In this document: piece by piece, positions 37,389-41,634 of the stretch
Numbering within the stretch: position 1 is the stretch's first letter
Layout: each line of letters starts with the position of its first letter
Source of the DNA: Methanocaldococcus sp. 16A
GTDB lineage: Archaea > AGJL01 > Methanococci > Methanococcales > Methanocaldococcaceae
Length of the DNA: 64,000 bases
NCBI GenBank assembly: GCA_049860595.1
Contig: CP187551.1
Direction: 5' to 3' (one strand)
The notes under the pieces: model-generated
What the model was told of the DNA's origin: nothing
Database searches by the model: none
Seen by the model: only the letters and a program-made list of their open reading frames with translations
Position numbers and translations under genes: made by a program

Positions 37389-37396
37389 GTCAATCT

Positions 37397-38875
37397 TTAT
37401 AATGTAATATTTAAATTCTTTAGAGATTCTTTTGCATATTTTAAACCTTCATTTTCATCTTTTTCAATATATATCTCCACAGTTTTTTTAGCTATTTCTA
37501 AAAGTTTTTTACTATTCTCTCTTGCTTTAAATGATTGTTGGATTAGTTGGGAGATTTTTTGTTGGATTTGGGGTTCAATTAAGGGTATTGGAAGATTTAA
37601 TATGTCTTCATCTGTGAGAGTAGGATAAGTAGTTCCTGTGTAAAATTTATAACTCCACAAAGAAAAAATGTCTGTTCTTAAAAAAACAAACAATGTTTCA
37701 ATATTTATTTTTTTGTTTTCTTTTTCATGTAAAACTACAAATGCTGTGCTTCCAATCAAATTAGGATATGTCTTTTTTATAAGAGCGATACCTTTTCTAT
37801 AGGTTCTAACTTTAGACACTAACAAATCGTTTTTATCCAACTTTAATTTTGCATTTGCTGGTAAATCTTCCCCTCTAAGATAAGATGGGCTAAAATCTCC
37901 AGTTGAAATATTAACTGAACTTATTTCAACATAGTTATAATATTTTTCTTTATCAACTTTTAATTTATCTGTTTTATGCAAAAATTCCTTTGAAATTGTT
38001 GAATATCCATTTTTGTAATTCTTTATCAATTCTTCAATTTCATCATATTTGGGCTCCCAATATTCAGCATCCAGTCTATCTGCTCTTATAACCTCTGAAA
38101 GATTTCTTATTGAAATGTTTTCATCTTCCACAAATTCTATATTGCCTATTTTTATTTTCTTTGTTTTTGGTTTCCAATTTTTAAGTCCTAATTCTTCTAA
38201 TAATATTTCTTCTGCTTGTTTGTAAAGTTGTTCTGCTTTTTGCCTTTCTTCATAAGCTTTTAAGACAAGTTTTTCTATGAATTTTTGAAAAGTGTCAGAA
38301 GGTATTGGAATTTTAAGATTCATAATGTCATCTTCTGAAATCGCAGGATACATTGTAGCAGTTGTTTTTCTAACAAGTAAATCCCTGTAGTATTTTGTTT
38401 TAAAGAGTATAAATAAGTAACAGGGTTTTATACGATTGCTAATTATTTTTAACTTACAAAATCCTGTACTTGCAACTAATGGTTTTTGTTTTACTTCAAA
38501 AATAAAAGCCACTGCGTTTCTATTAGGCCTAACAGTAGAAATTAAAATATCATTTTTTTCAACAATTTTCTTTGCTCTTGATGGAGCTAAATGGGATGGT
38601 AATGTTTCAACTTCAAAGTCTCCTGTAATTAGATCCACATTAGATATTTCAATATAATAAAATTTATCGTATAATTTAGGATTAAAAGTACTGTATTTAT
38701 TTGAAGCTAAATTATATAGAAAATCATGATTTAAATTTTCTATCTTTTCTTGCAACATTATCCAAGAAGGATCATAATATTCAGCATCAAGCCTTAATTC
38801 TCCTTCTAATTCAGAAACATTAACTATGGAATATTCCACATCATAATATTTTCCTTTATGGGTAGCTGTTATCAT
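37397..38875 (-). CDS. Restriction-modification specificity (HsdS-like) subunit with two TRDs
   Basis: Duplicated RLDAEY; DILIS.VR/DLLVSKVR; MYPAISEDDI/TYPTLTDEDI; coiled-coil spacers. Confidence 0.85.
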   Translation of the reverse strand: MITATHKGKYYDVEYSIVNVSELEGELRLDAEYYDPSWIMLQEKIENLNHDFLYNLASNKYSTFNPKLYDKFYYIEISNVDLITGDFEVETLPSHLAPSRAKKIVEKNDILISTVRPNRNAVAFIFEVKQKPLVASTGFCKLKIISNRIKPCYLFILFKTKYYRDLLVRKTTATMYPAISEDDIMNLKIPIPSDTFQKFIEKLVLKAYEERQKAEQLYKQAEEILLEELGLKNWKPKTKKIKIGNIEFVEDENISIRNLSEVIRADRLDAEYWEPKYDEIEELIKNYKNGYSTISKEFLHKTDKLKVDKEKYYNYVEISSVNISTGDFSPSYLRGEDLPANAKLKLDKNDLLVSKVRTYRKGIALIKKTYPNLIGSTAFVVLHEKENKKINIETLFVFLRTDIFSLWSYKFYTGTTYPTLTDEDILNLPIPLIEPQIQQKISQLIQQSFKARENSKKLLEIAKKTVEIYIEKDENEGLKYAKESLKNLNITL

Positions 38876-38878
38876 TTA

Positions 38879-39469
38879 TTACACCTCATCTTTTATAAGT
38901 ATGCTTAAAATATTATAGCAAGCCTTTATTATCTTATGATTTTCATCTGTTGGTTCCATCTCTCCATGAATTAATTGATTTCTAATCATATACAAAATTT
39001 CAACAAAATATGGCCAGATCTCATCAGGATCATTTTTTACATATATTTTTCCTACTTTTATATAACCCCTAGGTTTCCTTTGTAAGTGAAAACTCCTTAT
39101 ATGGATAAACTCTTTAAAGCTAATTTCATCGAGTTTATTTCCATTCATTTGTGGCTTTATAGATTCTGTTTTTAATATTGTTTTACCCCCAAAAATCCCT
39201 CCATCATAGATTCTTATAAGTTCCCCTAAATACAATCTAAACTCTTTCCCATCATCTGAGTTTTCTTCAAATAGTCGTTTAAATTTTCTTCTTAACACAT
39301 TATCTGTTGTTTTAAGATTTTCAATATAGTCTCGGTCTTTTCTTAAATTTTCATTTTGGAACAATCTCTTATATAAGGCATTAAAAGATAACCATAGCTT
39401 TACAAATGCTGAAAAATAATCAATTTCAGCTTTTCTAAACCATTCTAAACTATTAGATTGACGGGGCAT
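38879..39469 (-). CDS. Stand-alone HEPN-domain protein (putative RNase)
   Basis: FVKLWLSFNALY and LYMIRNQLIHG (Rx4H HEPN motif). Confidence 0.75.
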   Translation of the reverse strand: MPRQSNSLEWFRKAEIDYFSAFVKLWLSFNALYKRLFQNENLRKDRDYIENLKTTDNVLRRKFKRLFEENSDDGKEFRLYLGELIRIYDGGIFGGKTILKTESIKPQMNGNKLDEISFKEFIHIRSFHLQRKPRGYIKVGKIYVKNDPDEIWPYFVEILYMIRNQLIHGEMEPTDENHKIIKACYNILSILIKDEV

Positions 39470-39470
39470 T

Positions 39471-41462
39471 TTAATCCACCTCTAAATCCTCTAAAAAGTC
39501 AAAAGCCTCATCCCCATCTTCTAACCTTTTTAATCCCCATTTGATAAAAGCATCTGCTATATCAAATAAATCTGTCTGATAAATAGGATTTCCTTTTTTA
39601 TCTCTTATATAATTCCCGTTTTCATCTTTTACAAAAATATATTCTCCTGAGTTATCTTTAAATGGAATCTTTGAAACAGCAAAAAAGATAGGATAATCTT
39701 TCAATTTTGGATTTCCTCCTTCGTCAAGTTCTTCTTCTTTCCATTTTCTTAAAATTAATAAAGAAGTTTTTACTCCAGCATGTGGTTTAAATGAATTAGG
39801 ATGTAATCCAACTACTGCTAATATTCTTGCTCTTTTCATAATAAATTCTCTAACATATCTTTCTGTAGTATTATTAAAAATCCCTTGAGGTAAAACAATT
39901 GCCAGCCTACCGCCTGGCTTTATCATATCTAAAGCCCTTTCAATAAACAATATGTGTCTTTCAATTTTGCTCTGCTCCTTCTTCTTTTTATTTTCTGGAA
40001 CTATTTTATAATTATTTTTAAACCATGATTCCCTAATTTCCCCCGCAAATGGGGGATTTGATAATAAAATGTCAAAATTAAGTTCTTTAAATTTTTCATC
40101 TCTTACTAAATTTTCTTCTTTTAGATCTGCTTTTAACTTTTCACTCCATTTAACAAACTCCAAAGAATTTTCTTTATAAATATGAGATCTACCATCTCCA
40201 GAAATAAGCATTAAAGCTTTTGCGATTTTAACGGCTTTTTCATCAAAATCTATTCCCCATAAATATTTTCCAGCATATATTATTTTTTCAGCTTCATTTA
40301 AATTATATTTTTCCCAAACATATTGCATTGCATGAATTAAGAATCCAGCACTACCACATGCTGGATCAATAATATATTCATCCTCTCGAGGATTTAACAT
40401 TTTAACTGCAGCATCTATAATTACTCTTGGAGTGAAATATTGACCTTTTTTAGATTTTGAGACTTCTGGAACTAAATATTCAAAAGCATCATCAATTATT
40501 CTTAAATCAGCTCCAAAAAGTTTTAAATTTTGCATTTCTGCAACACAAATATCTAAGTGCTCAGGTTTTAATTTGATTTTATCAGTTTTTTCGAAAATAC
40601 CTGGCCATTGCCTTTTAGCTTTATCAAACAAATCTGATATAACTTTATATGTTGTATTTGGATCTGAATATTTCCTAAATTCAAGAATTTTTCCTTTTCT
40701 TCTTTTGGCTTTATATTCATCGTAAAGTTTTGCATATATTAATTTAAAAACTTCATTAAACACATCTACTCCCGAATTAGCCAAAACTAATTCTTCTAAA
40801 GTTTTTATAATCTCCTTAAAATTTGGTTTTTTTGTTTTATATATCTCCTCTAATTTATCCAAAGTCCATTCTCTTTTTAAAATAATATTGGTTACTTCTA
40901 AAGCTGGATTTTTAGAATCTTTTACTTTTTGATACTCCATATATGTTGGAATATCAGGCAAGTTATCTTCAAATTCTCTTGGATATGGTCTGTATAAAAT
41001 TATTTGTTCTTTTCCATTTATTGCTACACCAATAGGAGAACCTTCCGCATTTAAATAACTTTTTAGCTGAGGAATATTTAATCTTTCATAAGGAGATTTT
41101 ACCTCTACTATAATCCAAGGAGTTATTTTGTCATCTTGATAAACTATTATATCTGCTCTCTTCTTTTCTCTCCCAAAACTGACTTTTTCTTCAATTTTTA
41201 TATTTTCTTTTGGATATTTATAATTATCAATTAATTCATAAAGAAAAAGTTGTCTTACGATTTCTTCAGGTTTTTTCTTATTCTTTGTTTCATCAAACAC
41301 TAATAATTCCTTTTCTTTTGAATCATAACTTTTAATATACCATTTTCCTTTTTCTTTTTCATAAATTTTAATCTTTGGGATATGAGAAACTAATAAAGGA
41401 ACTTCACTTTCAATATTGGGTATTATTTTTAATAGAATATCCATATTTTGTTTTTCATTCAT
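39471..41462 (-). CDS. Fused restriction endonuclease (HsdR-N-like PD-(D/E)xK) and N6-adenine methyltransferase
   Basis: PEEIVRQ, RADIIVY..VEVK, GQYFTP, DPACGSAGF and NPPF motifs. Confidence 0.9.
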   Translation of the reverse strand: MNEKQNMDILLKIIPNIESEVPLLVSHIPKIKIYEKEKGKWYIKSYDSKEKELLVFDETKNKKKPEEIVRQLFLYELIDNYKYPKENIKIEEKVSFGREKKRADIIVYQDDKITPWIIVEVKSPYERLNIPQLKSYLNAEGSPIGVAINGKEQIILYRPYPREFEDNLPDIPTYMEYQKVKDSKNPALEVTNIILKREWTLDKLEEIYKTKKPNFKEIIKTLEELVLANSGVDVFNEVFKLIYAKLYDEYKAKRRKGKILEFRKYSDPNTTYKVISDLFDKAKRQWPGIFEKTDKIKLKPEHLDICVAEMQNLKLFGADLRIIDDAFEYLVPEVSKSKKGQYFTPRVIIDAAVKMLNPREDEYIIDPACGSAGFLIHAMQYVWEKYNLNEAEKIIYAGKYLWGIDFDEKAVKIAKALMLISGDGRSHIYKENSLEFVKWSEKLKADLKEENLVRDEKFKELNFDILLSNPPFAGEIRESWFKNNYKIVPENKKKKEQSKIERHILFIERALDMIKPGGRLAIVLPQGIFNNTTERYVREFIMKRARILAVVGLHPNSFKPHAGVKTSLLILRKWKEEELDEGGNPKLKDYPIFFAVSKIPFKDNSGEYIFVKDENGNYIRDKKGNPIYQTDLFDIADAFIKWGLKRLEDGDEAFDFLEDLEVD

Positions 41463-41634
41463 AGATTATCACCATTATTATTAATTTACTCCCGTATTAT
41501 ATCAAAATTCAAACTTAATAAATTATTTATATATGCGGTTTATTATATTATTTCGTATATTTTAAGTAGAATTACAGATATTGTTAAATATTAACTTTTC
41601 TATTAATCTAATATAATCTAAAATTTAATTTTTT

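Follow-up and report, generated by a model that had tools for sequence, protein, structure and literature searches.

Restriction-modification (R-M) operons have been linked to at least 16 clades of HEPN proteins, and a PrrC-like model, in which the nuclease is released upon inhibition of restriction, has been put forward for such pairs (Anantharaman et al. 2013, PMC3710099; this and the other publications are cited from the accessible parts of their text). Here, we describe a three-gene block at positions 37397..41462 of a 64,000-nt stretch (the window) of contig CP187551.1 of the archaeon Methanocaldococcus sp. 16A (assembly GCA_049860595.1). In this block, the gene of a small protein, designated X, is placed between genes encoding a fused nuclease-methylase subunit (RM, or M in related loci) and a specificity subunit (S). 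We read it, with a probability of roughly 0.55, as a mobile three-gene defence cassette composed of a type IIB-like RM-S enzyme and a PrrC-like accessory ribonuclease (RNase), X.

Comparison with described systems

In the type Ic system EcoprrI, the gene of the HEPN nuclease PrrC is found inside the R-M operon and almost only there, R-M operons also occur without it, and PrrC has been proposed to be a second-line RNase that is freed when restriction is neutralized (PMC3710099; Payne et al. 2024, bioRxiv 10.1101/2024.01.29.577857). The gene of X shares this arrangement, and a similar role may be proposed for its product. However, PrrC carries an N-terminal ABC-ATPase domain and depends on a helicase-dependent hsdMSR host, whereas X is a protein of 196 amino acids (aa) that has no ATPase, matches no PrrC-related model, is accompanied by a helicase-less RM+S host and is also present in archaea. 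The fusion of an ABC-ATPase to a HEPN domain that characterizes PrrC and RloC is absent from X.

The R-M part of the block resembles BsaXI and BcgI, being composed of an RM fusion (a PD-(D/E)xK nuclease and an N6-adenine methylase) and an S subunit with two target-recognition domains (TRDs), with no helicase. In the accessible descriptions, BsaXI and BcgI are two-gene systems, while the block contains a third gene, that of X. Moreover, RM.BsaXI has 916 aa and includes a “knob” and a “paddle”, whereas the RM protein of the window has 663 aa.

A defensive role has been reported for the embedded HEPN gene HEC-08, with loss of defence upon mutation of the histidine in its Rx4-6H motif (Payne et al. 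2024, bioRxiv 10.1101/2024.01.29.577857), and this gene, like that of X, is nested in a multi-gene defence operon. In contrast to X, HEC-08 is a DUF3644 HEPN protein with zinc-finger-like C-terminal domains and is found in Hma systems; X is tied to a single host family and has no match in PADLOC-DB v2.0.0 at E ≤ 1. Small stand-alone HEPN proteins are also known from HEPN-MNT toxin-antitoxin modules (SO_3166, 5yep; HEPN toxin 7ae2, 8xdj), and these are among the best fold matches of X. The differences are that no nucleotidyltransferase antitoxin gene lies beside X, that X contains an insert of ~110 residues, and that its partners are RM and S.

A more distant likeness concerns the MADS system (mad1-mad8). 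The M and S proteins of the window are distant relatives of MAD2 and MAD5 (279 and 117 bits, respectively), and in both systems effector genes are located between the methylase and S genes. However, the NCBIfam cut-offs (720 and 400, respectively) are missed by a wide margin. MADS comprises eight genes, with MAD3-MAD4 as an OLD-like ATPase-nuclease (PMC13662399, accessible part), whereas the insert described here has only three genes, one of them HEPN-like, and no other mad genes. The identification of X as MAD3 or MAD4 was considered and rejected, since these are OLD-like ATPase-nuclease proteins according to the same source and X matches no mad model.

In the literature, searched at the level of titles and abstracts, no mention was found of the X family or of a HEPN gene in a type IIB operon; subscription journals and supplements, including the tables of Anantharaman et al. 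2013 and Payne et al. 2024, lay outside this search. The preliminary description of the locus had proposed a possibly undescribed two-layer defence system. This has to be narrowed: the concept was published in 2013 (PMC3710099) and extended in 2024 (Payne et al.), but the X protein family and its helicase-less, type IIB-like RM+S host are, as far as our scans and searches reach, new elements.

Gene organization and the type IIB-like enzyme

The block consists of three open reading frames (ORFs), all on the minus strand, which encode the RM subunit (39471..41462; 663 aa), X (38879..39469; 196 aa) and the S subunit (37397..38875; 492 aa). They are separated by gaps of 1 bp (39470) and 3 bp (38876-38878), and the genes flanking the block on either side are both on the plus strand. 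The ORFs, domain matches and translations thus agree with the layout, coordinates, gaps, RNQLIH motif and opposite orientation relative to the neighbours that had been read from the sequence in the preliminary description.

The RM subunit is composed of an N-terminal PD-(D/E)xK domain (Pfam HSDR_N_2, residues 65-172, E 4.9e-22), a helical connector and a gamma-type N6-adenine methyltransferase domain (Pfam N6_Mtase, residues 322-642, E 1.6e-37), and its translation contains the methylase motifs DPACGSAG and NPPF. Over its full length it matches the PADLOC model MTase_I PDLC03034 (575 bits), which is filed by PADLOC under type I methylases. Its best sequence match in the PDB is RM.BsaXI (8w0p, E 1e-28), aligned with query residues 65-582, which include both the nuclease and methylase regions. 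The type IIB enzyme BsaXI forms (RM)2S assemblies, and its N-terminal nuclease requires residues E73, D90, E105 and K107 (PMC11997821). All four are matched in the alignment, by E91, D104, E120 and K122 of the window's protein (encoded at 41097..41192, minus strand). Among 13 RM orthologues D104, E120 and K122 are invariant, and E91 is kept in 12. The S subunit contains two Methylase_S stretches (Pfam) within one reading frame, corresponding to two TRDs, together with repeated RxDAEY(Y/W) conserved regions, and the residue pairs R28/D30 and R267/D269 are invariant across 19 sequences.

No helicase gene is present in the 4.2-kb insert that carries the block, or in the flanks of 12 related loci (L003, L008, L012, L013, L016, L019, L021, L024, L028, L033, L053 and L054). 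The sole HsdR-like gene of the genome is located ~172 kb from the locus and directly adjoins S and M genes of its own, so the absence of a helicase HsdR from the block, already noted in the preliminary description, holds, and the locus has no dedicated HsdR subunit of the kind that defines type I (hsdMSR) systems. It combines an RM fusion with intact catalytic residues and an N6-adenine methylase, a separate two-TRD S subunit, and no translocating helicase, as in type IIB systems. Together with the RM.BsaXI match, these features support the BcgI-like organization suggested earlier, and the R-M part is best described as BcgI/BsaXI-like (type IIB-like) and not type I; cutting on the flanking sides of a bipartite site, with release of a short fragment, would be predicted from this assignment.

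A complete canonical type I operon was identified outside the window, on the minus strand (G000:C1 ~696290-702020; L005, L006). It consists of hsdM (N6_Mtase, 238 bits), hsdS (445 aa, two-TRD) and hsdR, whose 842-aa product contains HSDR_N, ResIII, Helicase_C and EcoEI_R_C domains and a CarboxypepD_reg-like insert. The idea that the distant HsdR serves the M/S pair of the window was rejected, since the distant protein is encoded next to M and S genes of its own and the flanks of the 12 related cassettes are without a helicase.

X represents a family with an invariant Rx4H motif

No match to X was found at E ≤ 1 in Pfam, NCBIfam or PADLOC, or at E ≤ 0.1 in PHROGs, and none of the defence candidate families (PDC/HEC) of PADLOC-DB v2.0.0 matched it at E ≤ 1. 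A word-indexed search returned 56 clusters homologous to X (~196-204 aa), and a HMMER pass over 1.84 billion representatives returned 288 relatives at E ≤ 0.001, falling into two size classes of ~190-210 and ~260-280 aa. The one annotated full-length copy whose RefSeq label was inspected is a “hypothetical protein”; the nearest clusters in the ESM Atlas all bear the same label and belong to no Pfam family.

Five residues, Y18, W26, Y160, R163 and H168, are invariant in an alignment of 54 sequences of the family (23-78% identity). R163 and H168 are the ends of the Rx4H motif RNQLIH (38966..38983, minus strand), and this arginine and histidine are also invariant in a second set of aligned sequences (45/45). 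By itself, such a motif would attract little notice in a protein of 196 aa; it is the invariance of both residues in 54/54 sequences that places it beyond chance. In 23 sequences of A1, an alignment of close relatives of X, the motif arginine is followed by N or C, and C is the consensus of wider sets.

Longer fused forms of X were not found among 7836 candidates, which is weak evidence for their absence. Two genomes of the sister family contain ORFs of 460 and 452 aa with no Pfam domain (L057:6854-8236 and L058:6155-7513), whose C-terminal part weakly matches the X profile (E ~1e-6 to 2e-5, positions ~78-186); these may represent a distant fused relative of X.

X probably adopts a HEPN fold

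In the AlphaFold model of X (pLDDT 95), helices are formed by residues 4-14, 18-36, 148-167 and 175-192, and the second and third of these are separated by an insert of ~110 residues (37-147) that contains three helices and a small beta region. The Rx4H motif is located at the end of the second-to-last helix (148-167), at the start of the loop leading to the last one. The same layout is seen in the model of a second member of the family, which shares only 28% identity with X. In HEPN domains the Rx4-6H motif lies where core helix 3 ends and the loop towards helix 4 begins, and inserts between helices 2 and 3 are frequent (PMC3710099). X shows each of these features: a conserved Rx4-6H motif with a polar residue after the arginine, its placement, and the insert between helices 2 and 3.

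A structure search with X against 48,161 chains pointed in the same direction, at least 14 of the 50 entries listed being HEPN proteins. These are recognizable as such by title (2hsb, 8xdj, 7ae2, 4nqf, Cas13 6aay, 8wcs, 7vti, Csm6 8jbc) or from the accessible literature (1wwp, 1ylm, 5yep, AbiA 8oz7, AbiF 8vz6, Swt1 4pqz). With the small HEPN proteins among the best matches (5yep, 7ae2, 8xdj), ~93-98 residues of 130-141 were aligned. Two further entries, 1jog and 9fcv, we take to be HEPN proteins as well. For the second family member, HEPN proteins account for 10 of the 50 matches listed, including ranks 2, 3 and 4.

Comparisons of sequences are less telling. A significant sequence or profile match of X to a curated HEPN family was not obtained, X having no Pfam match at E ≤ 1 and its relatives only sub-threshold ones. 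The Pfam families recurring among the sub-threshold matches of 54 relatives are HEPN_RiboL-PSP (3/54, best E 0.0028), DUF4209 (3/54) and HEPN_Apea (2/54), and HEPN_LA2681 appeared once. When the X family was aligned by hhalign with 25 RiboL-PSP proteins, the two Rx4H motifs were superposed, but with a P value of 0.006 and a probability of 6%. Members of HEPN_Apea were found in 4 of 301 genomes, too few for a profile. A Foldseek comparison of X with the PDB and BFVD gave nothing useful, and matches of the X-family profile A2 to influenza HA2 among PDB sequences were rejected as spurious, being compositional only.

The sequence evidence for X as a HEPN protein is thus suggestive. Taking the motif position in the model and the HEPN-enriched fold matches into account, we consider it quite likely that X belongs to the HEPN fold, and the earlier reading of the 196-aa protein as a HEPN protein with an intact Rx4H motif is upheld as probable. 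That X is also an RNase, as the motif would predict, is somewhat less likely than the fold itself.

Association of X with one R-M family

The neighbourhood of X was compared in 31 loci, 4 from genomes and 27 from metagenomes, of which L003 and L031 are apparently one sequence. All three genes are present in 20 of them, in the order M-X-S in 19 and M-S-X in one. In a further 8 loci M or S stands beside X at a contig end, and L026 contains only fragments of X and S. Neither M nor S was found in L002 and in L004, the latter being a doubtful match of 17.6 bits. Genes of the M/S family therefore accompany X in 29 of the 31 related loci. Whether the order is M-X-S or M-S-X, X adjoins S, and the two genes often overlap at their stop and start codons. 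The distances of M and X correlate (r 0.77, Mantel p 0.0002) in 13 complete cassettes, among which related loci are not independent; as judged from these sequence distances, the correlation shows long co-inheritance.

The same association extends to bacteria. Among 401 Pseudomonadota genomes sampled, four match X: two of them carry M-S-X cassettes (G050 and G203), one is G266, considered below, and the match in G040 is the doubtful one of L004. An M-S-X cassette is also present on an IncF plasmid of Klebsiella pneumoniae, where the genes are annotated as “N-6 DNA methylase”, “restriction endonuclease subunit S” and “hypothetical protein”; its M protein is 41% identical to that of the window. 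Homologues of X thus recur with R-M and S genes in the 29 loci, two proteobacterial genomes and one plasmid.

The reverse dependence does not exist. A close M orthologue (E ≤ 1e-100) is present in 10 of the 401 Pseudomonadota genomes, and X in only two of those 10. L109 and L113 are plain M-S pairs without X, and in L112 and L114 the M gene (616 and 613 aa, respectively) is followed by an overlapping gene of 259 aa in the position of S (L112:3472-4251 and L114:7856-8635). In Pfam the product of the L112 copy has only a sub-threshold Methylase_S match (E 0.0037) and that of the L114 copy has none. If these genes encode half-size S subunits, this would suggest a homodimeric version of the enzyme that recognizes a palindromic site. 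Since M often occurs without X and X nearly always with M/S, the enzyme appears to be independent of X, and X to be a dependent accessory. The same asymmetry has been described for PrrC and type I R-M systems (Payne et al. 2024, bioRxiv 10.1101/2024.01.29.577857).

Some of these loci have additional features. L026, a 10.6-kb segment of a 34.5-kb metagenome contig, contains a 76-aa fragment of X, a 116-aa fragment of S and very few long ORFs; either the cassette has decayed there or the contig is read in another genetic code. In L024 and L025, M is 73% identical to the window's M, but X is a variant of 215-218 aa that is only 32-40% identical to the window's X; this is explained either by a much higher rate of evolution in X than in M or by exchange of X between cassettes. 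In G050, the M-S-X cassette is extended by a gene of the Mrr type (L053:4802-5770; Mrr_N and Mrr_cat domains), which follows and overlaps X and encodes a modification-dependent restriction enzyme. Related cassettes in L012 and L013 are located in defence islands with further, unrelated HEPN genes (L012:2-1033, L012:2423-2902 and L013:8139-8819), namely Hypoth_Ymh, the classical HEPN family PF05168 and AbiU2; NucS/YhcG-like nucleases and integrases are also present in these islands.

Insertion of the block and mobility of the cassette

None of the 16 other species of the genus has X, and in 23 genomes of the sister family only two weak matches, in an ORF of 460 aa, were found. In five congeners the genes that flank the block are directly adjacent to each other, and their products are 88-99% identical to those of the window. 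In the closest relative (flank proteins 97-99% identical) homology is lost immediately downstream of the left gene's stop codon and resumes ~22 bp before the start of the right one. These breakpoints delimit an insert of ~4.2 kb (~37389-41611) comprising the three genes and their upstream region; no long target duplication was seen at its ends in this comparison. The block is a recent, clean insertion.

The X protein of the window had no match in 72,556 plasmid records or 50,697 phage records, alignment A1 had none in IMG/VR viral contigs, and the 204-aa copy of L053 had none among plasmids. In contrast, the 271-aa proteobacterial X protein of L054 matches 466 plasmid records of Klebsiella, Escherichia or Raoultella, although with a coverage of at least 80% in only one of them, and 18 of the 20 matches listed comprise the C-terminal part only. 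In L118 (NZ_CP065035.1, 5666-7516) an IS1-like transposase gene abuts a 139-aa C-terminal remnant of X, and M and S are absent. The truncated plasmid copies probably go back to one ancestral deletion that subsequently spread with the plasmid backbone.

Proposed mode of action

By analogy with BsaXI, RM and S would assemble as (RM)2S into a BcgI/BsaXI-like, helicase-independent R-M enzyme. It would methylate a bipartite site on host DNA, while the N-terminal PD-(D/E)xK domain would cut unmodified DNA. X would act as a stand-alone HEPN accessory, its invariant Rx4H motif predicting a metal-independent endoribonuclease. We hypothesize that X is silent while the RM-S complex is intact and that, once a virus disables or overwhelms restriction, it would cleave a target RNA, stopping translation (abortive infection). 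Because X is without an ATPase sensor, its ~110-residue insert is a candidate control or contact surface.

In a more specific version, which we regard as tentative, X would be an obligate, bound third subunit. It would then be the smallest known guard RNase, consisting of a bare HEPN domain and one insert with no ATPase sensor, reading the state of (RM)2S directly and passing from a silent to an RNA-cleaving form upon a trigger such as the binding of a DNA-mimic anti-restriction protein or the falling apart of the complex. If true, X would provide the first example of such a coupling both in archaea and among helicase-less R-M enzymes.

To our knowledge, PrrC is almost the only R-M/HEPN case that has been worked out, and it needs a large ATPase sensor. 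The cassette described here is simpler, with three genes in 4.2 kb and neither an ATPase nor a helicase, and is conserved from a hyperthermophilic archaeon to a conjugative plasmid of Klebsiella. It may therefore offer a tractable system in which to ask how a restriction enzyme holds an RNase in check, and whether type IIB-like enzymes come with a response of their own to anti-restriction. In addition, at least 288 sequence clusters can now be treated as one named family with a genomic context. If X is inactive or independent, the locus is just one more example of an embedded defence gene.

Alternative explanations

Some observations weigh against control of X by the R-M enzyme. G266 contains an intact 193-aa copy of X beside a gene for a STAND-like NTPase, with no M or S, and the relative of X in L002 follows an unrelated gene, likewise without M/S; such control is therefore not universal. 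L024 is an outlier in which M is 73% identical to its counterpart in the window and X only 40%, so that X could have been exchanged and not have co-evolved. These loci, and equally the M/S pairs without X in L109 and L113, would suit an independent cargo gene that is lodged in the operon and has a trigger of its own, with no functional coupling to RM-S, the more so as embedded genes that can be swapped are common in defence operons, including those of type I R-M systems (Payne et al. 2024, bioRxiv 10.1101/2024.01.29.577857). We nevertheless consider this unlikely, since cargo is normally promiscuous, whereas X stands beside the same M/S family in 29 of 31 loci and no other host system was seen. 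The close junctions of X with S in both gene orders and the correlated divergence of M and X also speak against cargo, as do the failure of the window's X to match plasmid and phage records and that of A1 to match IMG/VR.

The dependence of X on M/S could also be structural. X might be a non-RNase accessory subunit that aids cleavage, assembly or regulation, its likeness to HEPN proteins being that of a generic helical bundle, and it might stand in for the “knob” and “paddle” of the longer RM.BsaXI, which the 663-aa RM lacks. This explanation seems improbable to us: L109 and L113 have a close M orthologue and a full S without X, so the enzyme can be built in its absence; a purely structural subunit would hardly be expected to keep R-N/C-x3-H invariant in 54/54 sequences at the canonical HEPN position; and the top structural matches are specifically HEPN proteins and not random helical bundles. 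It is more improbable still that X is primarily a toxin-like addiction element, by which loss of M-S would lead to killing by leftover X and the benefit would be persistence of the island. The mobility of the cassette, seen in its clean insertion and in the copy on a conjugative plasmid, would fit such a role, and so would the plasmid copies of X that are mostly C-terminal remnants, including L118, where M-S was lost and X was cut by IS1, as if intact X were not tolerated in the absence of M-S, although these probably reflect a single ancestral event. However, intact X occurs without M/S in G266 and L002, and R-M systems are already addiction modules by themselves. An addiction mechanism is in any case compatible with the proposed fail-safe role of X and does not exclude it.

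Upstream region and host

The AT-rich region upstream of the operon (41463..41611, minus strand), read from the sequence and bounded by the comparison with congeners, is part of the insert. It contains a GGTGAT box 6 nt ahead of the ATG codon and a TATA-like sequence, ATATATAAATA, ~60 nt upstream, which together may be read as the putative promoter region of the operon. For the 4.2-kb block, no public sequencing runs and no RNA data are listed. The genome comprises 1.62 Mb in 3 contigs, and its gene content includes a full reverse gyrase, with a score of 1847 bits that exceeds the family cut-off. The host is therefore a hyperthermophile, which fits its earlier designation as a thermophilic archaeon.

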